Virus record (IMG/VR): IMGVR_UViG_3300044811_000031
Location: 23,792 to 87,791 of that record
From: a virus
Reading direction: 5' to 3' (one strand)
Length of the DNA stretch: 64,000 bases
The first letter of the stretch is position 1. Each line of letters begins with the position of its first letter. The position numbers and the translations under genes were made by a program. Below are positions 5,379 through 55,329 of the stretch, piece by piece. Below the pieces are notes generated by a model. That model did no database searches, had not been told where the DNA came from, and saw only the letters and a program-made list of their open reading frames with translations.

Positions 5379-5389
5379 GGAGTTGAACC

Positions 5390-6400: not shown

Positions 6401-6913
6401 GTGGCCTGGACCGAGAGCCGGATCTTCCAAGAGTGGCCGAAGTCGGTGTTCGGCCAGGGCCAGACTGCTGCCGTGCTCCCGGCCGCCTACGCGGGCCTGG
6501 GTGCCGACTCAGTCAAGTTCGCCCTGTTCGGGGGCAACACCCCGGACCGCACCGTGGCCATCACCGCCACCGGCTACAACGCTGCCGGATCCCAGTGGGT
6601 CGTCGCCAACGAGAAGACCGGTGGTGGCTCGTCCGCGTGGGTGACCGCCGGGCGCGTCCTGGCGTCCAAGACTTTCACCACCCCGTCCACCGGCGTGTTC
6701 ATGTTCGATGCGGCCGACCTCACCGACGCCGCCGCGTCCACCATGTCCGGTGTTGAGGGCGGCCTCGTCTTCGATGACACGATCACCGTCGGCACCGGCG
6801 GCATCGCCAAGCAGGGTGTCTGCTACAACTGGTTCGGCGGCTCCCAGTCGGTCACGGCCGGAACTTTTTCGGTCGTTTTCAACGCCAACGGCATCCTCCG
6901 CATAACGGTCTGA
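6401..6913 (+). CDS. Putative virion structural protein
   Basis: 170 aa, Gly/Thr/Ala-rich, beta-rich; GAGGT RBS. Confidence 0.6.
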   Translation: MAWTESRIFQEWPKSVFGQGQTAAVLPAAYAGLGADSVKFALFGGNTPDRTVAITATGYNAAGSQWVVANEKTGGGSSAWVTAGRVLASKTFTTPSTGVFMFDAADLTDAAASTMSGVEGGLVFDDTITVGTGGIAKQGVCYNWFGGSQSVTAGTFSVVFNANGILRITV

Positions 6914-6955
6914 CCTGGGGTTACGCCTCTTAACCGGGTACGGTAAACTGTACCC

Positions 6956-7639: not shown

Positions 7640-9784
7640 ATGGCTGTCGCCTGGCGTGCCAACGGCTCGATCACCTCCGGCAGCACCGCCAACCCCGCCG
7701 CAGCATCCACCATCCCGGCCAGCGCGGTCGATGGGGACATGCTGGTCATGGCGGTGCTGACCCGCAACACGACGCCCCCCACCGTCACCACGCCCTCCGG
7801 CTGGAACCTGCTCGGCAGCATCCAGGGCGGCACGGGCGCCTTCGCGGCTGACGCCGGGCTGGTCCTGCTCACTCTGTTTTCGCGGATCTTCGTCACCGGC
7901 GACACCGCCCCGGCGCCCGCCCTATCGGCCGCGCCCGACAACGCCATGGTCGGGATCACCGCCTTCAGCAAGGGAGCCACCGAGACCTGGGTGACGCCCC
8001 GGCTGTCCACGGCCTCCAGCTCCACCGGCTCCGCCAGTACGTACTCCCCCTCCACCGGCACCCCCGTGCCGACGTTCCAGCCCGGGGACATGGTCTGGTG
8101 CGTGGACGCGATCAACGGAGACATCGGCACCTGGGCTGCTCCGGCCGGTACCCTCACCGCCACCGGCGTCACCTTCGGAACCATCACCAACCGCTTCGCC
8201 ACGCCTAACGGCCTGGGCACCGGCGACAGCCGCATGGACGGCTCGTCCATGCCGTACACCAGCGGCACCGCCTCCGCCGGTCTCGTCCGCTCGGTCAGCT
8301 ACACCGTGGGTGGCGCCAGCACGTGTGGCTCCTCCGGATACGTGCAGCTCTCCGTCACCGTCCAAGCCACCAGCACGGATGCGGCCAGCACCGGTGCGGC
8401 GGCCGACTCCACCGCCGGTATGGAGATGCTGCCCACGGCGGCCAACGGCGCCACCGGTGCGGCGGCCGACGCACAGGGCCAGCTGAGCACGCTGCCCACG
8501 GCGGCCAACGGCGCCACCGGCACGGCGTACGACGCGGTCGCCCAGACGTCCTCCGGAGTCACGGCCCTGCCGGACACTCCGGGCGGCACGGGCACGGCGC
8601 AGGACATGTCCGCCGCCCTGTCCGCCCTGCCGGACGCTCCGGCCGGGACAGGTGCGGCGCAGGACATGTCCGTCGCCCTGTCCGCCCTGCCGGACACCCC
8701 GGCCGGGACCGGCGTAGCGGCCGACGCACAGGCGCAGCTGAGCACGCTGCCCACGGCGGCCAACGGCGCCACCGGCACGGCTGCGGACATGTCCACCGCG
8801 CTGTCCGTCCTGCCGGACACTCCGTCCGGTACCGGCGTGGCTCTCGACGCCCCGCTCACGATCGCCGCTGGGGGCCTCGCCTCCGGGACAGGTACCGCGA
8901 GCGACTCCTCCGCTGGGCTGAGCGCGCTACCGGACACCCCTGCGGCCACGGGTACCAGCCTGGGGGCCACAGCCTCTCAGGAGGGAGCCTCGGGAGTTTC
9001 CACCGCCACGGGTGCGGCGGCCGACGGACAGGCTCAGATCACTGTCCTGCCGGACACCCCGGCCGGTACCGGCACGGCTCTCGACGCGGTCGCCCAAGCG
9101 GGCAGTGGGATCACGGCTCAGGCGGACATCGCCTCCGGCACCGGCGCCGCGCAGGACATGTCCGTCGCCCTGTCCGTCCTGCCGGACACTCCGTCCGGGA
9201 CGGGCGCCGGACAGGACGCCTCCGCTGGCGCAGGTGTCCTGCCCGACACTCCGGTGGGAGCCGGTGCCGCGTCCGGTCCTGTGGCGTCCCTGGGTGCCCT
9301 GCCGGACACGCCCTCGGGGGCCGGTGCCGCGTCCGGCCCTATGGCGCCCGAGGAAGCCCTGCCAGGCACCGGCCAGGCTACCGGCGCGGCGGCCGACGGG
9401 ACAGCCGGTATCGCCGCCCTGCCCGACGCTCCGGCCGGTACCGGCACGGCCCACGACGCGACCGCGCAGACCATCACCGGGACCGTCGCCAACGCGGGGA
9501 CCGCGAGCGCCACCGGCGCGGCAGCCGACGACTTCACGGCCATCATGGTCAACGCGGGCTTCCCCACCGCCGTGGCGGACGCCTTCGGCATCGGCGTCCC
9601 GGTCACCGGCAGCGAGGACGTCTCCGGCCGGGAGCCGGTGGGCGCCGTGTCCGGCCGCCGCAGCGACGTCAACTCCGCGACCGGCCGGGAGCCCGGCGGG
9701 ACATTCGGCTCAGCGACGGTAACCTCAGCTCAGGGCCGGGAGCCCTCACCATCCGCTTCAGGCCGGGAGGCTGGTCATCAGTGA
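7640..9784 (+). CDS. Ala/Gly/Thr/Ser-rich repeat virion protein (fiber or decoration)
   Basis: 714 aa; many ~21-aa LPDTP.GTG.A.D repeats; C-terminal GREP repeats; N-terminal domain resembles the start of 17988. Confidence 0.7.
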   Translation: MAVAWRANGSITSGSTANPAAASTIPASAVDGDMLVMAVLTRNTTPPTVTTPSGWNLLGSIQGGTGAFAADAGLVLLTLFSRIFVTGDTAPAPALSAAPDNAMVGITAFSKGATETWVTPRLSTASSSTGSASTYSPSTGTPVPTFQPGDMVWCVDAINGDIGTWAAPAGTLTATGVTFGTITNRFATPNGLGTGDSRMDGSSMPYTSGTASAGLVRSVSYTVGGASTCGSSGYVQLSVTVQATSTDAASTGAAADSTAGMEMLPTAANGATGAAADAQGQLSTLPTAANGATGTAYDAVAQTSSGVTALPDTPGGTGTAQDMSAALSALPDAPAGTGAAQDMSVALSALPDTPAGTGVAADAQAQLSTLPTAANGATGTAADMSTALSVLPDTPSGTGVALDAPLTIAAGGLASGTGTASDSSAGLSALPDTPAATGTSLGATASQEGASGVSTATGAAADGQAQITVLPDTPAGTGTALDAVAQAGSGITAQADIASGTGAAQDMSVALSVLPDTPSGTGAGQDASAGAGVLPDTPVGAGAASGPVASLGALPDTPSGAGAASGPMAPEEALPGTGQATGAAADGTAGIAALPDAPAGTGTAHDATAQTITGTVANAGTASATGAAADDFTAIMVNAGFPTAVADAFGIGVPVTGSEDVSGREPVGAVSGRRSDVNSATGREPGGTFGSATVTSAQGREPSPSASGREAGHQ

Positions 9785-10119
9785 GTACCGACAGTGCGGT
9801 GATCGGTCCCTACAAGACCGGCGAGAAGCCGCTCCCCCTGACCTACACCTTCCAGGACAACGGCGGGGTGGCTATCAACCTCACCGGCTTCACGGCGAAG
9901 GTCAACGTCCGGGAGAAGTACGGCGCGGCCACCCAGTACAACGCCACGGTGAGCACCCCGCTGTCGGGCATCGTCACCTACGCCTGGACCGGTGCGGAGT
10001 TCCCGACCCCCGGCCAGTACCAGGCCGAGTTCTGGGTCGGCAACGGCGTGGCGAGGTACGACTCCATCCTGCTCAAGTTCGATGTCCGCGCGGCCGTCGG
10101 GCCCGTCCCGGCGATCTGA
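9781..10119 (+). CDS. Small virion protein (BppU N-terminal-like)
   Basis: GTGA coupling; INLTG, G.VTY.W, G.Y.AEF.V pattern. Confidence 0.6.
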   Translation: MSTDSAVIGPYKTGEKPLPLTYTFQDNGGVAINLTGFTAKVNVREKYGAATQYNATVSTPLSGIVTYAWTGAEFPTPGQYQAEFWVGNGVARYDSILLKFDVRAAVGPVPAI

Positions 10120-10126
10120 GGGGATC

Positions 10127-10933
10127 ATGACTGCCAACGCATTCGGCCCGTGCTCGGCCTGGACCCCCATCTGGACCTGCGACGTTTCGGCCAAGTCGCC
10201 CACCGCCACCGGCTACGCCGCGCAGGCCGCGACCGAGGTCATCTGGGCGCTGTCCGGCCGCCAGTTCGGCCTGTGCCAGGTGACGCTACGGCCCTGCCGC
10301 CGCAGCTGCTACGACGACAGCTGGTGGTCCACGTACGGTGGTCCCTGGCAGGCCGGGTGGTGCTCCCCGGGCTTCAACGTGCAGTACGGCTTCGGCTTCT
10401 GGTTCGACCTCACCTGCGGGTCCTGCTCCGGCGGGTGCTCCTGCTCGGAGGTTCCGGAGGTCGTGCTCCCGGCGCCGGTCAGCTCCATCGTCAACGTCAA
10501 GATGGACGGCACCCCGATGGCCACCGGCGCTTACCGCGTCGACAACAACCGGCTGCTCGTCCGCACCGACGGCCAGCGCTGGCCACGCTGCAACAACATG
10601 GTCAAGGACGACACCCAGCCGGGCACCTGGTCGGTCACCGCCCTGTACGGCCAGGACGTACCGGTCGCCGGACAGCTCGCCGTCGGGGAGATGGCCTGCG
10701 AGATCCTGCGCGCCATGGGTGGCGAGGACTGCCGCCTCCCGGCCGGGGTCCAGTCACTCATCCGGCAGGGCGTGACGATCGACTTCCCCCAGGTGGGGCA
10801 GCTCATCCGCGACGGCATCACCGGTCTGTACCTGGTGGACCAGTTCGTCGCGTCGGTCAACCCGTCCAGGCTCCCGGCCCGCAGCCGGGTCTACAGCGTG
10901 GACACCAAACCCCATCGAAGGGCAGGCACGTGA
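10127..10933 (+). CDS. Head-to-tail adaptor
   Basis: LSGRQFG.C, Cys-rich loop, CRLP, RQGVT, TGL..VD; RBS GAGGGG. Confidence 0.7.
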   Translation: MTANAFGPCSAWTPIWTCDVSAKSPTATGYAAQAATEVIWALSGRQFGLCQVTLRPCRRSCYDDSWWSTYGGPWQAGWCSPGFNVQYGFGFWFDLTCGSCSGGCSCSEVPEVVLPAPVSSIVNVKMDGTPMATGAYRVDNNRLLVRTDGQRWPRCNNMVKDDTQPGTWSVTALYGQDVPVAGQLAVGEMACEILRAMGGEDCRLPAGVQSLIRQGVTIDFPQVGQLIRDGITGLYLVDQFVASVNPSRLPARSRVYSVDTKPHRRAGT

Positions 10934-33214: not shown

Positions 33215-33235
33215 CGTGCTCTCCTCTCGTTTGAG

Positions 33236-33305
33236 TGTCCTCAACAGGATTCGAACCTGTGGACTCCGGCACTAGCAACCGGCGCGCAACCGATGCGCTG
33301 AGGAC
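33236..33305 (-). ncRNA. Atypical compact tRNA-like RNA (central loop triplet CUA)
   Basis: Perfect acceptor stem GTCCTCA/TGAGGAC and T arm ACAGG-TTCGAAT-CCTGT; 5-nt D loop; CCGG-TTGCTAGTG-CCGG. Confidence 0.7.
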
Positions 33306-39359: not shown

Positions 39360-39918
39360 TCTCTCCTGGTGTCGCTGGGGTGGTCCGTGCGGGGCGCCGG
39401 GTTGCGACCCCGGCCGTCGTGGTGACCGGCCGGTCGATCCGGGGATCTCGTCCCCGGCGTCCCAGTGCGCGGTAAGGGTCTGACCCCCGACCGTGCCTGG
39501 CGGATTGTGGCTCCGCCGGGCCGTGTGGTGCTTGTGCCTGGCCGTGCTCGCCGGTCTGGCCGGTCGAGTCGTTCCGCAGGCGATCGTGCTCGTGTATAGG
39601 TGACGCTCTCGATGTCGCGGCTAAGTACCGTCCGGGGCGGTCCGTGAGGATCACCGCTGGGTGGCTCGCTCGATCGTTTCGTGCTGGCGCTCGATCCCTC
39701 GCGCTTACCCCGCCCGGATGTGTCCGACGTGATCAGTCAGTGCCGTATGTCCTCGGCTGATCACCGGCCGTCCCCGGGCAGCGTTTCCGCTGCTGGATCT
39801 TGCTTCCGTTTTCTTGGGGAGGGTCGGTGCCCTGTCGCCGGTCGCGCTTCCGCTTTTAGGCCCTCCCCGGTTCCCCGGGGGCTCTGCCTGGGACTTGCCG
39901 CTTGCCCCTGCCCTACAA
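39360..39918 (-). ncRNA. Long structured 5' leader or candidate ncRNA
   Basis: ~560 nt between promoter and first RBS; several hairpins; no convincing ORF. Confidence 0.5.
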
Positions 39919-39923
39919 CCACA

Positions 39924-39952
39924 AATATACGGGCGGTAGTGAGTTATGTAAA
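39924..39952 (-). promoter_or_regulatory. Sigma70/HrdB-type promoter
   Basis: TTTACA-17 nt-TATATT on the - strand. Confidence 0.75.
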
Positions 39953-40106
39953 GTCTCACTTAAGCCTCTGACCTGGGGCTTTCAAACTCGTAGGTAAAGT
40001 GTTGGTAAAGTGATCAAGGCTTCGGGGGCCCTCAACCCCCATACGAATGAGGCAAGTTCACTGACCTGGGGTTATACGAAAACTATGCGAGGCCACCGGC
40101 CCGGAA

Positions 40107-40268
40107 GTTACCGCGCCGTAGTGATCAAGCTCTGACCAGGGGAAATCCCTAGCAGAAAGAGCTGGCCCACTCGTACCGGGCCAGCTCCGAAAGGCTCTTA
40201 GACGGCAACCTCGCCGTTTTGCTACCCTACGTATCAGTAACTTGAAGGATAATTACCCATAGCTACCG
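40107..40268 (+). repeat. Dispersed non-coding element, copy B
   Basis: Gapless alignment to 13377-13538. Confidence 0.85.
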
Positions 40269-40293
40269 GCTCCCCAACCGGTAGCTGACATAT

Positions 40294-40668
40294 TTATTCG
40301 GTCGCCTTCAGCCGCTGCTTCATGATCTTGTGGTCGGTTCCGGACTGCCGGAGCGACCGGACCATGGCCGCGAAGGCCAGGCAGCAGATCGCCAGAGAGA
40401 TCATCGCGATCATGAGCGCCTGAGCGATCATGACGAAGACGACCGCGACTCCGGCCAGAGCGATCATGGCCCAGACCGCGAGGACGAAGTGACCGGCGTA
40501 CCGGCTGGCGATGTCCATCTCCGGCACCGGCACCGGCGCGACGGCCGGAGGGTAGTGGTGGTGATGGATCTCGATCTTGTTGACGTTCGGCTGCGCCCAG
40601 TCCCGCTCGGCCATGTCGTACCGGGTGTACTCGACCAGCTCTGCCAGACGCGCCTGCTGCTCATCCAT
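40294..40668 (-). CDS. Membrane protein (Spd-like)
   Basis: IHHHHY.P followed by 2 TM segments. Confidence 0.6.
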   Translation of the reverse strand: MDEQQARLAELVEYTRYDMAERDWAQPNVNKIEIHHHHYPPAVAPVPVPEMDIASRYAGHFVLAVWAMIALAGVAVVFVMIAQALMIAMISLAICCLAFAAMVRSLRQSGTDHKIMKQRLKATE

Positions 40669-40807
40669 GAGTCGTCATCTCCTTGATCCTGTCCCAGTGC
40701 GCCGCTACGTAGATCACCGCGAGGAAGCCCAGCACCGTGAACGTCAGCCGCCGGTTGGCCCGGCGGCGCTGCTCCCTGCGGGCCCGTCGGCTGCGCCTCA
40801 CCACCAT
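40661..40807 (-). CDS. Small membrane protein
   Basis: Arg-rich N-terminus plus one TM. Confidence 0.5.
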   Translation of the reverse strand: MVVRRSRRARREQRRRANRRLTFTVLGFLAVIYVAAHWDRIKEMTTHG

Positions 40808-41052
40808 TCGATCCCCCCGAACAGATCGTCCCCACGGTGGCGCAGGTACGCCCGGCCGGGGACGGTGATCACCGTCATGATGATCGCGATGGCGACCATC
40901 AGGACGAGGGAGCCGACGACGTTCGCGTTGGCCGCGTCGCCGGGGAGCAGCGTCGCGAACAGGATGAGGAACACCAGCCCGAGCGCTCCGTCGATAACCA
41001 GGACGGTGCCCTTGACGACTTTGCTTACCATGATCTTCGCCTCCGTTGACAT
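40798..41052 (-). CDS. Small membrane protein (2 TM)
   Basis: Hydrophobic segments. Confidence 0.6.
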   Translation of the reverse strand: MSTEAKIMVSKVVKGTVLVIDGALGLVFLILFATLLPGDAANANVVGSLVLMVAIAIIMTVITVPGRAYLRHRGDDLFGGIEWW

Positions 41053-41177
41053 GAGCTGACACGGGTCCGTGTCAGTAGATGGGTGTCAGAAAAAGTGATC
41101 TAGGTCAGAGCCTCTGTCAGAAGACCTGACACCGGCGTCTGACACTCAGCTGACAAGGCTCCTGACATGCTCTGACA
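41046..41177. repeat. CTGACA/TGTCAG array (clt-like locus)
   Basis: 9 exact hexamers at 41056, 41070, 41084, 41115, 41126, 41139, 41150, 41162, 41172, plus near-matches. Confidence 0.75.
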
Positions 41178-41481
41178 GCCGTTGCTTGGTGACCTCTGGG
41201 AGTCGGCCCCGGAGGATGTTCACGGACCTCGTTACCGGGTCCAAGTGATACGGGTTCCAGCAGCGGGTCATCCTGCACAGATGGTCGGGCTCCAAGCCGT
41301 CCGGTAGATCATCGATCATCTCTCGGTACGCCACTCGATGCGCGTACTGGGTACGGCCTTCGATCATTACCCGGCTGTAGTCGTGTCCTGTACTGCGGGC
41401 CACCCAGCACGGGAGATCCAGCCCTTTTACCAGGCATGGAACCTCCCGTGACCGGGCTTCCAGACGGGCGAGCGGGTCCAT
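41146..41481 (-). CDS. HNH endonuclease
   Basis: HRVAY..DHLCR..RCWNPYHL; paralog of 14287. Confidence 0.8.
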   Translation of the reverse strand: MDPLARLEARSREVPCLVKGLDLPCWVARSTGHDYSRVMIEGRTQYAHRVAYREMIDDLPDGLEPDHLCRMTRCWNPYHLDPVTRSVNILRGRLPEVTKQRLSEHVRSLVS

Positions 41482-43439
41482 CAGGGCCGGTGGCCGTTAC
41501 TGACACGAGCCCTGATGTAGTACGGCGGCTTGCCGTTGACCTGGGTCAGGCGGCCCTCCTCCACGAGCCTGTTCAGCTCGTTGTAGACCCACTGGCGGGT
41601 CCGGCCGACCAGCCCGGGGAGGTCGTTCAGATCGGAGAAGTTGACGTCCATCTGGCCCCGGGTCTCCAGCTCATCGATCTTGCTCTCCAGCAGAGCGACC
41701 GCCTTCTCACGGGTCATCCGGTCCTCGGGCTCCGGCGGCCGGAGCGCGAACACGACGTCGTTCTTGGGACGGGCGATAGGCATCGACACGTCCACCTCCT
41801 CCTCGAACGGGTCCTCCATGTCACCGGCCACGGCTGCGACCGGCTCCTTGACCGGGTCGGCCGACAGACCCCGGGACAGGTACGCGAGCGTCCCGGCGTC
41901 GATCGTCGCCCAGTACCCGGCCGCCTTGCTCGCGGCTAGCTCAGCCTGCTTCTGCTCCCGGCTGAGGTAGTACGCGCGGGCCTCCTCCGCCCACTTCTCC
42001 GGGTCGGTGCCGACCAGCTCCCCGTACAGAGAACCGGGGTAGTTGTTCCGCCACTTGGTGGGGTCGGCCCCCTTCTCCAGCGTCCCGGCGCTCAGGGCGA
42101 AGCGGGCGTCGTAGTGCTCGACCGCCCCGTGGCAGAGGCTGTTGGTGAACTGCCCCCTCGTCTTCCGCTCGATGTTGCTGTGGTGGGCGGACGTCATGCT
42201 CGCGCAGAGACTGATGCCGACCGAGCGCGCGGTGCGGATCGCCTGGTCGAACTCGTCGTTGCCCGACAGGACGGTCGCGGCCTCTTCGATGTCGATGAAG
42301 AGGAGCGGCATGCCGTGCAGGGTCCACAGCTCCGGCTCCCACTGCTGGTAGCCGACGGTGCCGTCGCTCCTGGTCAGCTCGCCGAAAACCTGCGCCCGGT
42401 ACTTGATCGCATCGGGCAGGTTCCGGATGAACTGGTTGGTGTCGTCCTCGCCGTCGATGGCCAGGCCGAGGCAGTGGGCGATGGCGCCGAAGCCCTGCTT
42501 GAACTTCTCCGGGTCGGCCACGATCGGGACGACGTCGATGCGCCAGCGCATGTCGATGATCGCGGTGACGATCGTCTCGGTCTTGCCCGCGCCGGTGACG
42601 CCGGTGGTCAGCGTGTGCGGCAGGGGGCGGGGGCTGTCCGGGTCGGAGTTGCCGACGATCCACATGGCCAGGGGGGTGCCACCGGCGCGCTCCCCGGGGA
42701 CCAGGGCGGCAGCGGCGATGCTCTGACCAGGAGCGGAGGGCCCGGCCCACTTGACGGACTTCTTGAGGGACTCGGTGAGCTGGAACGCCAGGGTGACCTG
42801 ACTCGCATCCCCGGAGACGCCGGTCACGGTGACCTCGTCCTCGCCCATGCCGACGACCGAGGCGATGCGGCTCCGGTCCATCTGCACGTCGGCCGTGGTG
42901 CTGCCGCCCTTCTCCATCTGGATGGTCGTGGCGACCCGGCCGGGCTTCTCCTCGACCTTCTTGACCGTGCCGTTCTTCAGGCTGGCGATCTTGTCCAGCA
43001 GGCTGTCGTGGCCCCCGGCCGCCTTGTCGTCGTCGTGGTGGGGGGACATGGCCGCGTGGCGGATGCCCCACAGGGCGGAGACGAAGATGCCGCCCATCAC
43101 CCAGCTCTGCGTCATGCCGCTGGTCAGCGGGTCGGTGGCCGTGGCCACGACCAGCCACCCCAGCACGACGGTCGCGAACACGGTGGCCGCGTTGCGGGTG
43201 TGGGGGTGGCGCCGGTTCCACATGGTCCAGGTCGAGTAGACCAGCGCGGTGCACCCGGCGGACAGGAAGGCGATCATGACCGGCTTCCCGCCCCACTGCC
43301 AGTGAGCCAGCAGGGCCACCGGCATGACAACGACGCAGATCAGCGGTGCCGTCAGGTACGGCATCATCCGTGATCCGGCCAGTCCGCTGACCCCGAGCCG
43401 CTTGGTGCGGACGGCGCTGCGGCTCCCCTGCTTGCTCAT
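41481..43439 (-). CDS. traB: TraB-type FtsK/SpoIIIE DNA translocase
   Basis: N-terminal TM segments, Walker A GVTGAGKT, Walker B LFIDIEEA, C-terminal wHTH. Confidence 0.8.
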   Translation of the reverse strand: MSKQGSRSAVRTKRLGVSGLAGSRMMPYLTAPLICVVVMPVALLAHWQWGGKPVMIAFLSAGCTALVYSTWTMWNRRHPHTRNAATVFATVVLGWLVVATATDPLTSGMTQSWVMGGIFVSALWGIRHAAMSPHHDDDKAAGGHDSLLDKIASLKNGTVKKVEEKPGRVATTIQMEKGGSTTADVQMDRSRIASVVGMGEDEVTVTGVSGDASQVTLAFQLTESLKKSVKWAGPSAPGQSIAAAALVPGERAGGTPLAMWIVGNSDPDSPRPLPHTLTTGVTGAGKTETIVTAIIDMRWRIDVVPIVADPEKFKQGFGAIAHCLGLAIDGEDDTNQFIRNLPDAIKYRAQVFGELTRSDGTVGYQQWEPELWTLHGMPLLFIDIEEAATVLSGNDEFDQAIRTARSVGISLCASMTSAHHSNIERKTRGQFTNSLCHGAVEHYDARFALSAGTLEKGADPTKWRNNYPGSLYGELVGTDPEKWAEEARAYYLSREQKQAELAASKAAGYWATIDAGTLAYLSRGLSADPVKEPVAAVAGDMEDPFEEEVDVSMPIARPKNDVVFALRPPEPEDRMTREKAVALLESKIDELETRGQMDVNFSDLNDLPGLVGRTRQWVYNELNRLVEEGRLTQVNGKPPYYIRARVSNGHRP

Positions 43440-43451
43440 CCCGTGGCCCCC

Positions 43452-43946
43452 TTACTTGATCGTGAAGCGCTGGTGGGACTTGGCCTTGGTCTCGGACTTC
43501 TCCAGGATGTCCGCGTACACCTGCTCGAACGTCGACCATGCGGACACGAAGCCGCTGGCCGCCGAGGCGAAGTGATCCGCCGACGCCTCCAGGTGCTTGG
43601 TGACGCGCTTCATCTTCCAGGCGGCGGCCCACTGGTGACCGAGCTTGGCCATGTCCCGGGCGCCGGAGGTCAGCTCCCCGGCCGCGAGCGCGGACTGGAC
43701 CGCGAGGTAGTGGGACAGCTTGCGTCCGGCCTCGCAGAACTCGTTCAGGTCGTGCTGGTCGGACAGACCGACCTCGTCCATCGCCTTGACCAGAGCCTCG
43801 ATGCCCCCGCCGCCGGACGACTTGCGGGCGGGGCGGGACGCAGACGGACGGGACGCGGGCTGGCCCTGTCCGGTGAGTCCACGGTCGCTGGCGTCCTGTC
43901 CGTTCGCCGGGGTCGTGCCCCGGGTGGTGTTGTCTCCTGCTGCCAT
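43452..43946 (-). CDS. TraA-like plasmid transfer accessory protein
   Basis: Helical 164-aa protein directly upstream of traB. Confidence 0.5.
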   Translation of the reverse strand: MAAGDNTTRGTTPANGQDASDRGLTGQGQPASRPSASRPARKSSGGGGIEALVKAMDEVGLSDQHDLNEFCEAGRKLSHYLAVQSALAAGELTSGARDMAKLGHQWAAAWKMKRVTKHLEASADHFASAASGFVSAWSTFEQVYADILEKSETKAKSHQRFTIK

Positions 43947-43963
43947 GATCTTGTCTCCTTGTC

Positions 43964-44722
43964 TCAGGCTGTCCGGACATCCGGACGGTTACGGGCGATG
44001 GCCTTGCGCAGCGTGTCCGGCTTGGTGTCCGGCAGCTTGTCCAGCACGGCGGTGCGGATGTCCTCGTCCGAGATGTCCGGGTCGGCGGACACCAAGTCGC
44101 GGACAAGGGAGGGGACAGATCCATCGGCTGTCCGGCGGACAGGCTTGGGGTTGATCCGGAAGACAGGTCCGGTGTCCGGCTGTCCTCCGGCGAAGGCCAC
44201 GACGTCCGTGTCCGTGTCCAGAGCGGACGCCAAGGCGGACACGGACAGGGGCGGCCGGACAACGGGGGCGGACACGGCGTCCGGGGTCTCTGTCCGGACA
44301 GCGGCCATGTGCAGCAGGTGTCCGAAGACGAGCGCCGGGATGCAGGACACGGTGATGACGAGGGCGACCTGCTGAGCGGTGAGGCCCGGCTTGCCGTAGA
44401 GGTGGGCGATGGGCTGCGCCGCCATGGCCAGGAGGATTGCCAGAATGGCGCCCCAGACGGCCGTGGCCTTGCCGGGGGTACCGGGGGCCCGCTTGGTGGC
44501 TACGACGGCCGCTATGCCCGCGTAGGCGGTCAGGGTGCCGGGCATCCCCCAGGCGAGCGTCGGGCTCCACCCGGCCTGGTGCGCGAGGTAGTGCTCACCG
44601 GGGGCGCACATCACCAGGACGAAGACCGCGACGACCGGACGGCCGACGTTCAGGATCAGCCGGACCCACCACAGGTCGCGTCCGGTGTCCTGTGTCCGCT
44701 TGAACCACTTCGGTGTCCGCAT
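43964..44722 (-). CDS. SpdA/SpdB2/DUF2637-like membrane protein with C-terminal DNA-binding-like domain
   Basis: 4 TM (E..LA..AGW, P....HLL), Pro/Asp/Thr linker, DTLRKAI.R. Confidence 0.65.
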   Translation of the reverse strand: MRTPKWFKRTQDTGRDLWWVRLILNVGRPVVAVFVLVMCAPGEHYLAHQAGWSPTLAWGMPGTLTAYAGIAAVVATKRAPGTPGKATAVWGAILAILLAMAAQPIAHLYGKPGLTAQQVALVITVSCIPALVFGHLLHMAAVRTETPDAVSAPVVRPPLSVSALASALDTDTDVVAFAGGQPDTGPVFRINPKPVRRTADGSVPSLVRDLVSADPDISDEDIRTAVLDKLPDTKPDTLRKAIARNRPDVRTA

Positions 44723-44745
44723 GTCCTGGCTCTCCTGTCCTGACT

Positions 44746-44759
44746 GATTTAGTTAAATC
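44746..44759. promoter_or_regulatory. Palindromic operator-like site, copy 3
   Basis: GATTTAGTTAAATC upstream of the transfer module. Confidence 0.65.
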
Positions 44760-44832
44760 ACCCTGGATAAAGAAGTGTCCGGCCTGTCCGCTCAGCTGTC
44801 AAGCGGACAGGCCGGACACGGCCGGACACGGA

Positions 44833-45069
44833 TCAGGCTCCCGGACAGACGCCTCCGACCGGACCCCAGTTGTGGGTGTCGTGGGACACGAGGGCGGACA
44901 GGCGCGGACATGGCTCGTGTCCGGTGTCCGGCGGGCGGGTGCCCAGGACACGGGCCCGGGCGGACATGACGGCGGACAGCTCCGCAGCCGCCCGGCCGAA
45001 GTTGCGCAGAGCGAGGGCCATCTCCTCCAGGCCGGACACCACGATGTCCAGGTCTATCTGTCCGCCCAC
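44833..45069 (-). CDS. Hypothetical protein
   Basis: GTG start with GGAGG; start uncertain. Confidence 0.4.
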   Translation of the reverse strand: MGGQIDLDIVVSGLEEMALALRNFGRAAAELSAVMSARARVLGTRPPDTGHEPCPRLSALVSHDTHNWGPVGGVCPGA

Positions 45070-45281
45070 TGGATGCCCTCCATGTCCGTGACGTCCACCG
45101 TCTTGAGGGACATCAGCTCCAGCTCGTCCCGGGGAATCTTGAACGTCTTGCTCGTCCCCTTGACCACCAGCCGGGCGATCGGCTCGTCCGTCATCGGCAG
45201 GGGACTCCTGGCCGTCCCGGACATCTCGATCAGCCGGTCCCCGGCTCTCATACTCGCCAGGTACACGAAGCACGTCATCAC
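45054..45281 (-). CDS. Hypothetical protein
   Basis: GAGGAG RBS. Confidence 0.5.
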   Translation of the reverse strand: MMTCFVYLASMRAGDRLIEMSGTARSPLPMTDEPIARLVVKGTSKTFKIPRDELELMSLKTVDVTDMEGIQWADR

Positions 45282-45368
45282 TGTCTCCTCTGTCCGGCCG
45301 GTAGCGTCCGCTACCGGCCCACCGGGCGATGCGCCCGGCCTCGGCCAGCAGGTCGATCCTCTTCTCTA

Positions 45369-46010
45369 TCATGACCTTCCTCGTCCGGCGGTGGACGTCC
45401 GGGGGTGGGCGTGCCACTTCCAGGTCTTGCGGTCGACGTGTTCGAAGACCGCTCCGGCGTCGAGCATGCGGATCAGGTACGCCTCGTCCTCGCCACGGTA
45501 GCGGCCGTCCGGCAGGGTGAAGCCCTCGGGGAAGCCGTCCACCCGGCGGACCATCTCCGTGCGGACCAGATGGGTCATGGGGATGAAGCTCCCGGCCCGG
45601 CGGAGATGGGCCTCCTGCTCCTTTCCGAAGCGGATCCCCCAGGGCAGCATCAGGTGGCCCTGGACGGTGACGGCCGTGGGGTCCGGTCCGCCGACCATCC
45701 GGGGGACCGGGTAGACCAGGTCCGGCGGCGGGTCGTACCGGCCACGTGGCGTCTCGAACGGCCGCATGCAGACCTTGAGGTGACCCTCAAGAAGCTCGTC
45801 GTCGTCATCGAGCCAGGCGATGACGTCGGTGGTGACGCGCTGCATCGCCCGGTTGCGGCTGGCGGCGGCTCCGGTGCGCTGGCTGTCCCGCTCGACCACG
45901 AGCTGATCGAACGGGCGGACCTGGCTCTTGGCCGACAGCACGGCTCGCTCCAGCTCCCTCTCCCGGCCGGGGATCGTCGGGATGACCACCGCCACCGTGA
46001 GCCTGGTCAT
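45369..46010 (-). CDS. Glycosyltransferase family 2
   Basis: VVIPT, GAAASRN, WLDDDD, GED. Confidence 0.85.
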   Translation of the reverse strand: MTRLTVAVVIPTIPGRERELERAVLSAKSQVRPFDQLVVERDSQRTGAAASRNRAMQRVTTDVIAWLDDDDELLEGHLKVCMRPFETPRGRYDPPPDLVYPVPRMVGGPDPTAVTVQGHLMLPWGIRFGKEQEAHLRRAGSFIPMTHLVRTEMVRRVDGFPEGFTLPDGRYRGEDEAYLIRMLDAGAVFEHVDRKTWKWHAHPRTSTAGRGRS

Positions 46011-46165
46011 CGCCACTCCCGGGGGGAGCCGAGGGCCCGGAAGACCATGTTCAGCCCGTCGCGTATGTCCCGGTTGAAGTCGGCAGCCGTGACCACCCGG
46101 CGGACCCGGGCTGCACGCTCGATCTGGTGCGTGGCCTTCTCCACGTTCGGGTATCGGATCTTCAT
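46007..46165 (-). CDS. Small hypothetical protein
   Basis: Coupled ATGA. Confidence 0.45.
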   Translation of the reverse strand: MKIRYPNVEKATHQIERAARVRRVVTAADFNRDIRDGLNMVFRALGSPREWR

Positions 46166-46435
46166 CAGAACCACTTCCCCCAGTGCTGGTAGCCACAGCG
46201 GCGGCAGACGGCCGACGCGAACTGGCCACCCTGGATGAACGGGTGCGGGATCAGGATCCAGAAGGTACGGATCAGTGCTCGGTAGATCATCGTCTCTCAC
46301 TCCCTGGCGGTGGTGGTGCTGGCAGGGTGAACGGATCCGGCTGCGCCCCGCAGTACTGGCACATCCACCGGTGGCCCTCCGAGAGGAAGTTGTGCCCCGT
46401 CCACACCCCGCACCACCATCGGCCTAGCCTCGACT

Positions 46436-47020
46436 TCACCAGCGGTCTCCTCGTCCATTCGTGTTGTCGCCCCAGTGCCAGTACCACGTGCGCCGGTTCA
46501 GGTGGGTGAACTTCGCTCCGGCCCGGAGCAGGGCGTCCCAGGCCCCCCAGTCATCGCAGGGATTCTCCGGCGGACCCTTCGGCTGGAAGCCGCCGACGTC
46601 CTGGAGCAGGGCCGTACGCACCAGCACGGTGACCGGGATGTAGTTTTGGGCCTCCAGAGCCTTCGCGCTGAACTCCTGACCCTCGAACTGCGGGAAGGGA
46701 TCCCAGCCCTCGGGGACGGTGAACCACGGGTAGACGAGGTCGGCCCCGGTGGTCCGCGCGCAGTCCAGCAGGGAGGCGATGTGGTCCGGCCGCCACTGGT
46801 CGTCGGAGTCAAGGAAGGCGGTCCACTGCGTGGTGACCCCGGCCAGCGCCCGGTTGCGGGTCTCGGCAGCACCGGCATGGGTGGTGTCCACGGCGATGCT
46901 GATGGCGTCGACCGGCCGGGTCTGCCAGGCGACCGACTCCATCGCCCGGTCGAAGATCGCGGTTCGCAGCCGGGGCAGGTGCACGGGGATGACGGCGGTC
47001 ACGCCGCCGGTCAGCCTCAT
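46436..47020 (-). CDS. Glycosyltransferase family 2
   Basis: AVIP, GAAETRN, FLDSDD, GGF, DDW. Confidence 0.85.
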   Translation of the reverse strand: MRLTGGVTAVIPVHLPRLRTAIFDRAMESVAWQTRPVDAISIAVDTTHAGAAETRNRALAGVTTQWTAFLDSDDQWRPDHIASLLDCARTTGADLVYPWFTVPEGWDPFPQFEGQEFSAKALEAQNYIPVTVLVRTALLQDVGGFQPKGPPENPCDDWGAWDALLRAGAKFTHLNRRTWYWHWGDNTNGRGDRW

Positions 47021-47493
47021 GCGGGGGTGGCCCTCCAGTTCCCCTCGAAGCCCTGGTTGAAGTGCCAGCTGATCTCTTGCCAGAGCTTGATTCCGTAGTC
47101 CGCGTTGGCCGCGAACACGGCCTGCCCCGGCTGGCCGGGCTCCGCCTGCATGAAGTAGTAGAAGCTCTCCCTGCACCAGTAGCTGACGTGCGTCGGGTCG
47201 GCGATGGCGTGCCAGGTCGGCAGCCCGTTCTCGGTGATGATCAGCGGCAGGATCACCTCGAAGACGCCGCCCGGCCGGAGCACCCTGTGTGCCTCGTTGA
47301 AGATGTCGATCCGGCCCTGCCCGGCGGGGATGTGCTCCAGCACGTGGCTTGCCCGGATGTGGTCCACGGTGTCGTCGCCGGTCGGCCAGGGGACCTGCTG
47401 AGCCTCCCGCTGCCAGTCACCGTGGCCGTTGCGGCTGTCCAGGTTGACCCACCCCGGCTGGACGAGGGTTCCCCCGCCGATCTCGATGTTCAT
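47017..47493 (-). CDS. SAM-dependent methyltransferase-like protein
   Basis: IEIGGG, ASHVLEH, EAHRVLRPGG, DPTH. Confidence 0.8.
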   Translation of the reverse strand: MNIEIGGGTLVQPGWVNLDSRNGHGDWQREAQQVPWPTGDDTVDHIRASHVLEHIPAGQGRIDIFNEAHRVLRPGGVFEVILPLIITENGLPTWHAIADPTHVSYWCRESFYYFMQAEPGQPGQAVFAANADYGIKLWQEISWHFNQGFEGNWRATPA

Positions 47494-48224
47494 CAGTGCC
47501 TCGCGCTTCCCTCGTACTTGAGCCACGGGTTGGAGATGTGATCACCGGGCAGGGCCGACGGCCGCAGCTGATACCGCCGCAGGACGTACGGCTGACTGAC
47601 CTGGTCCTGGAAGGTGTGCCGCTGGACCTCGGCCATCCACGCCGCACTGAAGTCGCTCAGGGCGTCCCGGTAGTAGTTGCAGTTGCGAATGATGACGCCG
47701 GTGGCCCACAGCCCCCAGTGCTCGGGCATACCGGCCTCGCGGTACTCGGCCGCCTGGCGGGCCAGATCCTGTCCGGCGTACTTGGGCAGCGTGGCGCTGA
47801 AGGCGGCCTCGTCAAAGAGGCAGTCCCGCCACGGGTGGGCGAACTGCGCCAGGGGCTCCGCGTACTCCCCGGCCTCCGCCAGGAAGCGCGGGGAGGTGAT
47901 GCGGTAGCTGCCGTCGATCCAGGCGGTGAGCAGCGCCCGAGTGTGGGCCCGGGGGTGGAACTTCGGGTACTTGGCGGCCACGTTGCGGTGCAGACCTGGC
48001 TGGGGGTTCTCCACGACCCTCCAGCCTGCCAGGGCCCCGGGCTCGGCCTCGGTCAGCAGAGCCGGGTTGTCGGTGACCAGCACCCAGTCGACCTTCATCT
48101 CGACGTCGTACCCGAAGATCCTCATGACCTGCGGGCAGATGGGCTTCACGGTGTCGTAGCCATCGAAGATCCCGGTGATCACCGCTGCGTCGAACCTGGC
48201 CGGGTCGCCCTTCACCGGTACCAC
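47493..48224 (-). CDS. Glycosyltransferase-like protein (DUF616/TOD1-MUCI70-like)
   Basis: TGIFDGYD, K..P, WIDGS, HP.RDCL.DEA, DQVS.PY. Confidence 0.7.
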   Translation of the reverse strand: MVPVKGDPARFDAAVITGIFDGYDTVKPICPQVMRIFGYDVEMKVDWVLVTDNPALLTEAEPGALAGWRVVENPQPGLHRNVAAKYPKFHPRAHTRALLTAWIDGSYRITSPRFLAEAGEYAEPLAQFAHPWRDCLFDEAAFSATLPKYAGQDLARQAAEYREAGMPEHWGLWATGVIIRNCNYYRDALSDFSAAWMAEVQRHTFQDQVSQPYVLRRYQLRPSALPGDHISNPWLKYEGSARH

Positions 48225-49048
48225 TCCACAGCGGCCTCGACGCGGTCCCAGTCCAGCTCGGGCTTCCAGTCCAGAAGGTCCCAGCCCTCGCCGGTGGCGG
48301 CGCTCAGCGCGCTCGCCGTCTCGCCCCGGCGCATCGGCAGGTACTCGACACCGGCCTTGCTACCGGTCCATCCCAGGACCCGACGGGCCAGCTCGTTCAC
48401 CGTGACGGGCTGGCCGGTACCGGCGTCGAAGGTCTCGTCGTCCCCTCCCTGAGCGGCAGCCTCGACAAGCATCCGGCCGACGTCATCCGCGTGGACCAGA
48501 TCCACAATCTGCTCGCCGCCTCCCCAGATGGGGATCGGCTGGCCCTCCCAGGCACACCGGGCGAACGTCGGGAGGATCTTCTGCGGGTGGCCGTGACCGT
48601 GGGCCTGGTGAGGGCCGTAGGCGTTGAAGGCCCGGACGTGGCTGACCGGCAGGCCCTTGGACAGGTGCCAGGCCGTGGCCAGCCGGGTGGCGCAGATCTT
48701 GGTCGCGGTGTAGACGGACGGGAACACCGGCGGCATGGTGATGCCGACGTAGCGGACGCCGTGGTTGTGGCACCACTCCAGCACGCGGAGCGTACCGATC
48801 ACGTTGGCGTGCACGGCCTCCTCCGCCGTGTCGAACAGTTCGTCCGTGCCGAGCATCCCGGCCAGGTGGATCACGACGTCCGGGTGGGTCGGGGGCCACA
48901 TGCCGTGCAGGATCAGCTCGTCCAGGTCTCCGAGGACGTCCTGTCCGGCCGCCCGGTCGAAGGACCACGCCGTGTGTCCGGCGCGTACGGCGGCGGCGAT
49001 CGTCGCCCTGCCGATGAAGCCGTTCCCTCCGGTGACTGCGATGCGCAT
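48212..49048 (-). CDS. NAD-dependent epimerase/dehydratase
   Basis: VTGGNGFIG, HLA, YTATK, R.FNAYGP. Confidence 0.9.
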   Translation of the reverse strand: MRIAVTGGNGFIGRATIAAAVRAGHTAWSFDRAAGQDVLGDLDELILHGMWPPTHPDVVIHLAGMLGTDELFDTAEEAVHANVIGTLRVLEWCHNHGVRYVGITMPPVFPSVYTATKICATRLATAWHLSKGLPVSHVRAFNAYGPHQAHGHGHPQKILPTFARCAWEGQPIPIWGGGEQIVDLVHADDVGRMLVEAAAQGGDDETFDAGTGQPVTVNELARRVLGWTGSKAGVEYLPMRRGETASALSAATGEGWDLLDWKPELDWDRVEAAVEWYR

Positions 49049-49707
49049 CAGTGGGGGTATCCGTTCCACTTGGCCAGGAAGAGCTGGCGGTCGACGTGCG
49101 TGCGGGCGGTCAGCTCGGCGGAGGCCGATGTCGTCTCGCCGGGGGAGAGGTGGACCACGGCGCAGCCGGGAACGCACAGTGCCCCGCCCGACAGCCGGGC
49201 GGTGAAGTCGAGGTCGTTGTCCCCGTACCACCACTCGAACTGCTCGTCGGTCTTCAGGCCGGACTCCCCCCGCAGCATGAAGCACCAGCCGGTGATGCGG
49301 GTGGAGACGTCGGCGTTGGGCTGGGTGAGCAGCACCCGCCGGTCATCGAAGGCGTTCGGGTAGGCGAGCACGGCGGTGGTGGCCCGCATCTCGCGGTCCA
49401 GGGTCTCGGTCAGATGAGGGCAGGCGATGATGTCGTCGTTGGTGACCAGGACGTTCCACTGCTCCTGTCCGGCCGCCTTGGCGTAGGCGGCGGCAGCGGC
49501 GATGCCCAGGTTCCACCAGCGCTGGATGTTCTTGGGAGGGTCGGCATCGTCAATCGCGACGATCTTGCCTCCCCCGATGTCGGGGACGGTGAACTCCTCG
49601 CTGGTGCGGACCAGGAACAGCAGATCGACCTGATCGACCAGGCTCTCCAGGCATCCGTCCAGGCACTCCCGGCCGAAGCTCGGGACCACGGCGTAGGTGA
49701 GCGTCAC
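49048..49707 (-). CDS. Glycosyltransferase family 2
   Basis: WNLG, VTNDD, GWCF, WWYGDND. Confidence 0.75.
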   Translation of the reverse strand: MTLTYAVVPSFGRECLDGCLESLVDQVDLLFLVRTSEEFTVPDIGGGKIVAIDDADPPKNIQRWWNLGIAAAAAYAKAAGQEQWNVLVTNDDIIACPHLTETLDREMRATTAVLAYPNAFDDRRVLLTQPNADVSTRITGWCFMLRGESGLKTDEQFEWWYGDNDLDFTARLSGGALCVPGCAVVHLSPGETTSASAELTARTHVDRQLFLAKWNGYPH

Positions 49708-53456: not shown

Positions 53457-53612
53457 TCACTTGGCTCCGGCCAGCCCCAGAACGGTGCCCATAACGATCA
53501 GCGCCATGAGGGTCAGCCACACAATGATCACGATGAACTTCCACGAGGACAGCCGCTCGACACGGGCGGGGAGGGACACCCGGTGGGTGCCCCTCCCGTG
53601 CTGTCCGGTCAC
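53457..53612 (-). CDS. Small membrane protein
   Basis: GTGA-coupled; one TM. Confidence 0.5.
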   Translation of the reverse strand: MTGQHGRGTHRVSLPARVERLSSWKFIVIIVWLTLMALIVMGTVLGLAGAK

Positions 53613-54424
53613 ACCTGGTTCTCGGGCTTGCGGCCCCGGTTGTAGATGCCCTTGACGTGCGTGTAGGCGGCGGCCCCCAGGGTGGTGCCGTAGTGCCGCT
53701 TCGCGGTGGCCACCTCCCCGATGAACTGCGCCGGGGTCGTGTGCCGCAGCTTGACCACGAGACCCTGCACCTGCTTGGGCTCGATCTCCGGGTGCTTGGC
53801 GAACAGGCCTCCGATGCCACCGATGGTCTCGGTGCTCACCGCGTCGGTCGAGCCGTTCCAGGAGTTGGAGATGACCTCCAGCGTCCGGCGCAGGGCGACC
53901 CCGTCGTCGGCCCGGTAGATCCGCTCCACCGTGCCGATGCAGTTGTACCGGCGGTGCTTGGCGTCGGCCTTGCCGAAGCCCTGCGCCACCCATCCGAAGT
54001 GGGCCGTAATGTCGGCGATGTTCACCGCCCACTCCTCCTTAGCGGTGACTGCCAGGCGGAAGCGGTCCCGGACGTGAACGGCCTTGCGATCGTTGTGCTC
54101 CAGGAAGATCGCGGCCTCCTCCGGAAGGGTGAGGCCCTCGTACACCTGGCAGGTCAGCGGCGCCACGGTGGCCTCACCGCAGACGAGCTTGAACGCCTCG
54201 TACCGGGTCTGTCCGTCGAGCACGACGAACTCCTCGGCCACATCGACGTCGCCGGGGGAGCCCATGAACAGGGCCTTCCGGTGGCTCACGGCGAGGATGC
54301 CGACCATGTCGTCGTTCCAGCGGTCAGCGATCTTCCGGACGCGTACCGGGTCGAGCAGCCGCTGCACCCGGGGGTCGATGGACAGTTGATCGGCGGGGAT
54401 CTCTTCGATCTTCTTCTCGGTCAT
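53609..54424 (-). CDS. ParB/Srx N-terminal domain protein (DUF6551-like)
   Basis: L.ID..VQR, VLDGQTR, EEA.IF...N. Confidence 0.75.
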   Translation of the reverse strand: MTEKKIEEIPADQLSIDPRVQRLLDPVRVRKIADRWNDDMVGILAVSHRKALFMGSPGDVDVAEEFVVLDGQTRYEAFKLVCGEATVAPLTCQVYEGLTLPEEAAIFLEHNDRKAVHVRDRFRLAVTAKEEWAVNIADITAHFGWVAQGFGKADAKHRRYNCIGTVERIYRADDGVALRRTLEVISNSWNGSTDAVSTETIGGIGGLFAKHPEIEPKQVQGLVVKLRHTTPAQFIGEVATAKRHYGTTLGAAAYTHVKGIYNRGRKPENQV

Positions 54425-55329
54425 GCGTCGTTGTCTCCTGTGCTCTCTTCGATCTTCTTCTCGATCAGGTGGATCAGACGGACCAGGTCGGCCTTGGTCT
54501 TCCGGAGGTTGTCCGTGAAGACGTACAGCTCGTCCCGGTCTAGACCTGCGATCAGGTCCTTGTGGGCCTCCCAGTCCTTGTAGATGCCCCGGAGGAAGGT
54601 GATCTCCGGGAGGGTCATGTGCCGGGCCATGGTGGTCTGCGGCTTGCGGAGACGGTCCCGTCCGGCCGGGGCCTCCGGCGCCTGGAACCCGGTGGGGACG
54701 GAGGCCAGCTTCGGCCGGTCCCGGTCCGGGCGCTCGTCGGGTACGGCGGCGGGGACCTGCTCGATCGGGAGCTGCATGATCTGCGCCTGCTCCTCCTTGG
54801 GCTTGCGGACCAGACGGTCGGCGGCCGACAGGGCCAGCTCCCCGTCCTCGACCGCCTGCGCCACCTCGGGCACGCCCAGGCTGCGTACCCGCTTGGCCCG
54901 CTCCAGGCCCTTGACGCTGGCGCCGGTGCGCTCGGCGACCTGCTCGCGGGTCAGATGCGCAGACACGCCGGTCGACGCCTCTCCGGTCAGGTAGTCCTGA
55001 CGCTGCCCCCAGCCCAGCGTCTCCAGAGCCTGCGCGGCCATGGCGATCTGGCTGGGGGTGAGATGACGTCGGGCGGTGTTCTCGTCCCAGACGTAACCGG
55101 CTGCGTCGTCGCCGGTGTAGGGCTTCTCCGGGCAGGCGATGCCGAGTTCCTGGCAGGCCCGCTTGCGGTTGCGGCCGTCGAGGATCATGCCCTCGAAGGT
55201 CGTGATCGGGTGGATCAGCCCATTGCGGCCGATGCGGTCCTTCAGCTCCTCGAAGGCGTCACCGTCCATCAGGGGGAAGACGTCGGCCAGCGGGTGCGCC
55301 TTGAGCCCTCCGTAGCTGCCCTTTGGCAT
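54421..55329 (-). CDS. ParB/Srx domain plus HTH protein
   Basis: HPLA.VFP, ILDGRNR..AC, N..RRHLT.SQ.A, HTH. Confidence 0.8.
   Translation of the reverse strand: MPKGSYGGLKAHPLADVFPLMDGDAFEELKDRIGRNGLIHPITTFEGMILDGRNRKRACQELGIACPEKPYTGDDAAGYVWDENTARRHLTPSQIAMAAQALETLGWGQRQDYLTGEASTGVSAHLTREQVAERTGASVKGLERAKRVRSLGVPEVAQAVEDGELALSAADRLVRKPKEEQAQIMQLPIEQVPAAVPDERPDRDRPKLASVPTGFQAPEAPAGRDRLRKPQTTMARHMTLPEITFLRGIYKDWEAHKDLIAGLDRDELYVFTDNLRKTKADLVRLIHLIEKKIEESTGDNDA

Follow-up and report, generated by a model that had tools for sequence, protein, structure and literature searches.

An uncultured Streptomyces-type tailed soil phage of 88 kb carries, in one genome with its virion genes, a gene set of the kind by which Streptomyces plasmids transfer double-stranded DNA (dsDNA), and it may therefore be able to spread independently of virions as well. 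Its genome is the IMG/VR record IMGVR_UViG_3300044811_000031, a single sequence of 87,791 bp, and the DNA analysed here, hereafter the window, makes up its right-hand 64 kb (64,000 nucleotides, record positions 23,792 to 87,791); the genes in question are read on the minus strand of the window, from 45,053 to 40,294. We consider it probable, with moderate confidence, that this region is an intact Streptomyces-plasmid-type dsDNA transfer module, native to the phage lineage, that moves phage DNA; the same judgement covers, jointly with the mechanism, the view that the module is a native and conserved operon of an uncultured lineage of 75–98-kb soil actinophages. A prediction made earlier from the letters of the window (the original prediction) had described a virion-encoding phage with a plasmid-type conjugation and spreading module at 40294–44760; all the genes it described were found there, on the minus strand, but it had overlooked a gene for an HNH endonuclease inside the module.

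The gene at 41481–43439 (minus strand) encodes a 652-aa ATPase, which we identified as a TraB of a divergent, phage-carried subfamily. Against the NCBIfam profile plasmid_TraB (NF041214) the protein gave a full-length match, residues 23–642 aligning with profile positions 4–632 of 639 (E 1.9e-106), and in BLASTP it was 26% identical to TraB of pSN22 over 658 columns and 27% identical to TraB of pWTY27 over 676 columns (E 5e-49). A quick maximum-likelihood tree search placed 31 phage-borne TraB sequences in one clade (support 99), sister to the clade of plasmid TraB proteins (support 100), so that the assignment to TraB made in the original prediction was upheld by both profile search and phylogeny. 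In an alignment of 21 homologues, G280, G285, K286 and T287 of the Walker A motif (GVTGAGKT at 280–287) and the acidic residues D383, E385 and E386 of Walker B were invariant; the protein is predicted to be an intact dsDNA translocase. Its AlphaFold2 model (mean predicted local distance difference test score 72.5) consists of four N-terminal helices (17–130), a beta-rich domain, the ATPase domain (276–520), a disordered linker and a winged helix-turn-helix (577–642). When this model was used in Foldseek, FtsK motor domains were the best matches (E 5.7e-12), followed by TcpA, a conjugation coupling protein, and EccC, with HerA/SIR2 also matched; a sequence-profile search of the PDB with the TraB alignment returned FtsK as its sole and weak match (E 0.008), and the Pfam scan of TraB reported no match to FtsK_SpoIIIE.

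Directly upstream of traB, at the position occupied by traA in pSN22 and pWTY27, lies the gene of a TraA-like helical protein of 164 aa (43452–43946, minus strand). The protein matched the NCBIfam profile plasmid_TraA (NF041213) with an E-value of 1.3e-9 and 38 bits, which is below the 80-bit cut-off, and was 26% identical to TraA of pSN22 in BLASTP (E 1.7e-6); with TraA of pWTY27 the E-value was 0.35. The far end of the module encodes the three small membrane proteins of the original prediction, all on the minus strand and with overlapping stops and starts: one of 84 aa (40798–41052) with two transmembrane (TM) helices and a positional equivalent in most relatives, one of 48 aa (40661–40807) with an Arg-rich N-terminus and a single TM helix, and one of 124 aa (40294–40668) with a cluster of two to three TM helices. 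The 48-aa gene overlaps both of its neighbours (ATGGTGGTGA and ATGGATGA stop/start overlaps), which indicates translational coupling; the spd operons of plasmids have likewise been described as translationally coupled (PMC4447253). The HNH endonuclease gene (111 aa, 41146–41481, minus strand; Pfam HNH_3, E 2.9e-7; phrog_826, E 7e-20) begins in an overlap with the stop of traB. It is missing from the corresponding junction in relatives, in which HNH homologues are found elsewhere, and looks like a genome-specific, homing-type insertion that has left both neighbours intact.

The first gene of the module after its AT-rich palindrome (see below) encodes a 252-aa protein (43964–44722, minus strand) with four TM helices, and a gene of this kind stands directly upstream of traA in 30 loci. 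The AlphaFold2 model of the protein shows four long helices (18–143), a disordered linker (146–198) and a confidently modelled three-helix tail (203–245). Its nearest neighbours in language-model space (Atlas feature) were DUF2637 clusters in 25 of 30 cases, and two of 13 positional equivalents matched the DUF2637 profile (PF10935; best E 1.9e-12), but the protein itself gave no match to this profile at E-values up to 0.1; Foldseek with its model gave none at E-values up to 0.001. The DUF2637/Spd-like label of the original prediction therefore holds in part: the protein is SpdB2/DUF2637-like by architecture and position, with its language-model neighbours in agreement, and not by profile. SpdB2 of pSVH1 has been described as a four-TM, oligomeric, DNA-binding and pore-forming partner of TraB, with which it forms a translocation complex, and its homologues on some actinophages have been proposed to help spread phage DNA (PMC4447253).

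Two repeat arrays accompany these genes. The downstream array (41046–41177), between the HNH gene and the 84-aa gene, holds about ten TGTCAG/CTGACA units (core TGACA[C/G]) in both orientations, spaced 10–14 bp apart. Eight or nine such units were found in five relatives (L006, L008, L010, L012 and L026), where they start 4–7 nt after the traB stop; a further 10 loci carry three to five copies of TGACA[C/G] type 3′ of traB, and others have GATC-type variants at that place. For its transfer, pWTY27 was shown to need the tra gene together with a clt of 175 bp beginning within the final 16 bp of tra, and footprints of the translocase cover four TGACACC repeats (PMC3583192), which we confirmed in the record of that plasmid (NC_013667.2). 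In its position, its repeat nature and its core the array at 41046–41177 agrees with pWTY27, suggesting that it is a candidate clt and putative loading site of TraB; a clt-like array supplies an element that the transfer hypothesis requires.

The upstream array spans 43,867–45,291 and contains CGGACA/TGTCCG 39 times, in the extended form sCGGACAs and with the two orientations about equally frequent. It is the densest hexamer cluster of the 88-kb genome, with nine copies per 300 bp against four to six in shuffled sequences, and is divided into two blocks, of which one precedes the 4-TM gene in the intergenic region and the other falls within the gene, where the disordered linker is encoded; hardly any copies occur in the intervening 450 nt, which code for the TM helices. 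At the equivalent position the densest hexamer cluster of the locus was found in 28 of 31 relatives, about 26 of them being clear element-specific arrays of 16–67 copies. The motif was GGGACA in 14 loci, CGGACA in three (the window counted), AGGACA in one, GGACAG in three, GRGACG in three, CGARAG in two, and GCTCAG and ATCCGG in one each.

These motifs go with the type of tail borne by the multi-TM protein: the common tail is found with NGGACA, a MerR/Xis-like tail (type B) with GRGACG, and a third type with CGARAG. The pairing of the MerR/Xis-like tail with GRGACG appears at three separate places on the tree, and in all five phylogenetically independent contrasts the motif changes with the tail type. 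Where the tail is MerR/Xis-like, both array blocks change around a TM-coding segment that stays of the same type, which argues against mere physical linkage. The identities of TraB and TraA follow the tree and not the motif of the upstream array. The winged helix of TraB was rejected as the reader of this array, as L014 (GGGACA) and L018 (CGAGAG) have nearly the same recognition helix. From the co-variation we infer that the C-terminal tail of the 4-TM protein binds DNA and that the upstream array is a candidate docking array for it. As a separate observation, the product of the first open reading frame (ORF) of the full record (21–248) is short, contains an excisionase/MerR-like motif (ITVRRWM...) and resembles the type B tails fused to the multi-TM protein in some relatives.

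Plasmids with TraB systems were also found to carry arrays, of 12–45 copies of an element-specific 6–8-mer, in or next to a multi-TM gene of the spd region downstream of traB. They include pSN22 (locus L130, array at 5797–6253), an NBC_01506 plasmid and a Thermobispora plasmid; besides that of L130, arrays lie at 6472–7428 (L039), 6710–7558 (L037) and about 8750–10200 (L132). The pSN22 array falls in the coding sequence of an Arg/Glu-rich linker. Because TraB plasmids also have such element-specific arrays in or near multi-TM spd-region genes, the array-plus-multi-TM arrangement is probably ancestral to TraB systems, and in these plasmids it may be the membrane protein, and not TraB, that the arrays serve as sites.

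The module is preceded by an AT-rich palindrome, GATTTAACTAAATC (44746–44759), whose end lies 23 nt ahead of the 4-TM start codon, with a ribosome-binding site between the two. Its consensus, GRTTTAnnTAAAYC, occurs in the window at 29058, 34850, 44746, 51207 and 57764 (10 strand-matches, with 0.41 expected by chance), each time shortly upstream of the start of a minus-strand gene, and was not found in the left 23.8 kb of the record. Relatives have up to 12 copies per 22 kb; at least 14 loci have one immediately before the multi-TM gene and about 10 have one before traA, and downstream genes are preceded by the element as well. The repeated palindrome that the original prediction had noted upstream of the module and of other phage genes is thus present at five sites, and its sharing with other genes, here and in relatives, supports the proposal that the module is wired into phage regulation; the element appears to be a lineage-wide promoter- or operator-like sequence. 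This arrangement may be comparable to the repeated operator palindromes of phage phiC31. In pSN22 and in the Amycolatopsis and Thermobispora plasmids a GntR repressor is present, and unregulated traB is reported to be toxic (PMC4447253). Control by the phage palindrome would be consistent with the fact that no GntR-type TraR was found here among the proteins scanned. A second palindrome, at 44775–44819 (minus strand), with perfect 18-nt arms followed by a T-rich tail and with four CGGACA units, was rejected as a recurrent element, being unique in the window and terminator-like; it is probably the terminator of the upstream operon.

The module is not confined to this genome. A search of 5.8 billion proteins returned at least 120 TraB homologues of 41–73% identity, many of them on contigs of 60–98 kb. 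A single-sequence scan of IMG/VR with TraB gave no match, and an alignment-based scan gave 30 loci on contigs of 29–98 kb, mostly 54–98 kb. The survey of related phages thus places the module on at least 30 IMG/VR contigs, and by tblastn and ORF maps nearly all of these share the order glycosyltransferases, multi-TM protein, TraA, TraB, a small protein with two TM helices and one of about 140 aa containing a TM cluster. Of the 10 TraB-carrying records sampled first, seven reached at least 90% completeness, and each of these seven had the portal as well (50–63% identical); in a second sample, of 15 portal-positive records of at least 60 kb from outside the TraB list, TraB was found in three. 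In the window, the cluster directly upstream of the module (45369–49285) comprises glycosyltransferase, NAD-dependent epimerase and TOD1/MUCI70-like genes, and such a cluster adjoins the module in most relatives.

This conservation bears on the possibility that the module is a passenger from a plasmid or an actinomycete integrative and conjugative element (AICE), recently acquired or in decay, or an assembly artefact, with no role in the phage. Such an origin could be argued from the complete relatives that have the same portal and no TraB, from the HNH gene inserted in the operon, and from the lack of a close match for TraB and the portal among isolated GenBank phages. It is opposed by the order of five to six genes and the two arrays, kept at 33–52% protein identity across 30 contigs, by frames that are all open and catalytic residues that are invariant, by the lineage's own palindrome in front of the genes, and by module borders that showed no integrase, rep or att-like flanks. 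The stretch 39,500–46,500 is also covered, with 0 differences, by another assembly of what is probably the source run. Three other soil metagenomes, from different studies, contain contigs of 200–430 nt that are 95–100% identical to parts of the module, none of which bridges a gene border; the joints listed have short sides (20–42 nt, in one case 97 nt) and were disregarded. Near-identical phages occur in several soils. Since the gene order is shared by the phage contigs, one of which is also deposited as plasmid pS1D4-14.2, we conclude that the module is not an assembly chimera and did not arrive recently with an AICE, and we regard a passenger or artefact as largely refuted and very improbable.

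The plasmid pS1D4-14.2, from the cultured strain Streptomyces sp. S1D4-14, is a deposited member of the same lineage (TraB 42% and portal 54% identical) and carries genes for terminase, portal, capsid, tape measure, a tyrosine recombinase (integrase), an XRE regulator and a ParB-family protein. By this example, members of the lineage can reside extrachromosomally in a strain in culture. The authors of the S1D4-14 genome list extrachromosomal elements from 98.8 kb upward (PMC6722414), and a later paper set the TraB proteins on such elements aside without analysis (PMC9513070).

The phage character of the window genome rests on its virion genes. The left arm, with genes on the plus strand, encodes a primase-helicase-PolA fusion, the terminase large subunit, the portal, a head protease/MuF-like protein, the major head protein, the tape-measure protein and a minor tail protein, and the right arm is read on the minus strand; the virion-encoding phage of the original prediction is thereby substantiated. 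G+C content varies between 63 and 74% in 2-kb windows. The portal was at best 36–38% identical to those of isolated GenBank phages among the matches listed, and megablast with the module and tblastn with TraB against 50,697 GenBank phages gave no match. ParB-like genes, noted in the original prediction, are also present, two in tandem at 53,609–55,329 (DUF6551 and PHROG ParB-like families) and one in the left arm; because no ParA partner was found among the proteins scanned, they are no evidence of plasmid partition. The tandem pair may serve in partition, as nucleases or as helpers of DNA modification.

Taken as a transfer system, the module could work as follows. TraB would sit as a ring in the membrane, its C-terminal winged helix would load on the TGACA[C/G] array just 3′ of traB, which would act as clt, and the FtsK-type motor would pump phage dsDNA across hyphal cross-walls or into touching mycelium. 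The three-helix tail of the SpdB2-like 4-TM protein would bind the approximately 39 sCGGACAs sites and so hold phage DNA at the membrane beside TraB, while TraA and the three coupled small membrane proteins would serve as spread helpers. The operon would be switched by the AT-rich palindrome common to other right-arm phage genes, and not by a GntR repressor of the plasmid kind.

The same parts could serve a narrower purpose, in which the module works only within one mycelium and spreads phage DNA over cross-walls into compartments and spores, as a function of stability or of spreading infection. Spd proteins together with TraB drive intramycelial spreading, which has been discussed as a stability function (PMC4447253, PMC4170104), and the proposed spreading of phage DNA by SpdB2 homologues of actinophages (PMC4447253) points the same way. 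Spreading could also replace partition, given that the proteins scanned included no ParA-type system, and in its great size the tether array recalls a centromere more than a minimal clt. Plasmid TraB, on the other hand, also performs the intermycelial step, and the two roles are compatible and inseparable from sequence alone; a function limited to the mycelium seems to us possible, though rather unlikely.

A pump could also be used for something other than genome transfer, such as superinfection exclusion, mobilisation of the host chromosome, or the segregation or resolution of replicated phage DNA. FtsK/HerA-type motors do occur in defence and secretion systems, the Foldseek matches of TraB include HerA/SIR2 and EccC, and PHROGs places FtsK-like phage proteins under host takeover. 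Yet a full-length TraB, TraA, a clt-like array on the phage DNA and membrane genes of spread type make up a complete plasmid transfer set, and no defence partner genes are adjacent, so that we hold such a use to be improbable.

Several findings weigh against transfer of phage DNA by an intact and native module. TraB scored 357 bits against an equivalog cut-off of 800 bits, and because the score is so far under this cut-off the phage protein is placed in a divergent subfamily and not among the equivalogs, with its activity assumed. The HNH gene separates traB from the downstream array in the window genome, and the co-variation of this array with the winged helix of TraB was not clean; a clean code linking the two was sought and not found in the relatives compared. 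For the upstream array, the sign test over the contrasts gave p = 0.06, the lowest value reachable with five. ParA, an integrase and GntR were not found among the approximately 70 proteins scanned (some small ORFs being outside the scan), nor did the scan of neighbouring proteins reveal a GntR repressor of the TraR/KorA (kil-kor) type; end repeats of at least 15 nt are missing from the record. Finally, TraB is missing from four complete records that share the portal (67–122 kb), so the phage can do without the module, common though it is in the lineage.

With these points in mind, we put forward only tentatively, and at less than even confidence, the broader proposal that a widespread lineage of soil actinophages (this member apparently lacking integrase and ParA) is transmitted both by virions and by pumping across hyphal walls, with a two-reader system in which TraB would act on clt and a sequence-specific tether with a swappable tail would act on its own array of 20–60 sites, partly within its own gene. 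If true, such a two-reader "conjugative phage" would have a modular code of DNA addresses for which plasmid TraB systems offer no described counterpart.

That a plasmid-phage can conjugate has been known from publications since 2010, so that the gain here lies in breadth and mechanism and not in a new category. The plasmid-phage pZL12 needs for conjugal transfer a tra gene and two neighbouring genes (cited in PMC3583192), and plasmid-phages of pFP4 type are described as able both to conjugate and to form particles (PMC4170104). These precedents make the interpretation given in the original prediction less new than it might seem. Its grouping of the ATPase with TraB, its native module and its palindrome control all stood. 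Both pZL12/phage ZL12 (GQ919031) and pFP4 combine infective tailed particles with conjugation; the window genome comes from a soil metagenome. The Tra protein of pZL12 (pZL12.71c) was rejected as a homologue of the window TraB, having no significant similarity to it (BLASTP E 2.5), and lies far outside in the TraB tree on a very long branch. In addition, pZL12 has ParA, ParB and an integrase, of which ParA and integrase were not found among the proteins scanned from the window, and it was not among the portal matches listed. What sets the phage module apart is its traA-traB-clt set of pSN22/pWTY27 type, its control by a phage palindrome and its arrays of sites matched to tails.

Two plasmids offer a further comparison. 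pWTY27 has a TraB-family translocase, a small traA directly upstream of it and TGACA-core repeats 3′ of the translocase gene, as in the phage, but it is a theta-replicating plasmid of 14 kb without virion genes; its direct repeats number four, compared with about ten in both orientations in the window, where an HNH gene stands between traB and the array and an upstream 4-TM gene has an array of its own. pSN22 (NC_001425.2; traR, traA-traB-spdA-spdB) shares the order traA-traB, with TraB and TraA each 26% identical to the phage proteins, and encodes at 5361–6116 a hypothetical protein of about 250 aa, which we take to be the spdB product, with N-terminal TM helices and an element-specific hexamer array in the 3′ half of its gene, features found in the 252-aa protein of the window too. 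It differs in having the divergent GntR repressor TraR, where none was found in the phage and the AT-rich palindrome stands instead, and in having the membrane-protein gene downstream of traB, whereas in the phage it lies upstream of traA.

For the membrane components, pSVH1 (PMC4447253) provides a parallel in its TraB, its four-TM DNA-binding SpdB2 and its small, translationally coupled membrane proteins; no sequence similarity was detected between the window proteins and Spd proteins. SpdB2 of that plasmid is reported to bind DNA non-specifically, while the window tail, with an array of about 40 sites, appears to be sequence-specific. The SpdA2/sps system of pIJ101 (PMC4170104) likewise pairs a transfer- or stability-associated DNA-binding protein with sites inside its own coding sequence. 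SpdA2 is small and soluble and has one to three conserved 12-bp palindromes, in contrast to the membrane-anchored window protein with its dozens of element-specific sites of 6–8 bp.

If the module works as proposed, tailed phages of mycelial bacteria could have a way around receptors and cell-surface defences and could do without lysis, passing as naked dsDNA between hyphae, and this would change models of Streptomyces host range, of gene flow in soil and of the spread of lysogeny. The lineage is common in soil metagenomes and is present as 'plasmids' in cultured strains. The co-variation of tail and array offers a simple DNA-recognition code, and suggests that SpdB-type membrane proteins may be the partners of some plasmid arrays that have been taken for TraB sites.

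Two further features of the window were observed apart from the module. The segment 8250–9780 has a G+C content of 74% and codes for repeats of about 20 residues of the type ALPDTPAGTGTA, and its product is a repeat-rich, probably structural, protein segment. The CCGGACAC signal that recurs about every 120 bp within it stems from these coding repeats, and the CCGGACAC cluster at 8570–9303 was accordingly rejected as a regulatory array, being the coding repeat for an LPDTP-type peptide. ARAGORN placed a tRNA with the amber-reading anticodon CTA at 33235–33305, one of eight tRNA-like genes in the right arm, and this is a possible suppressor tRNA.

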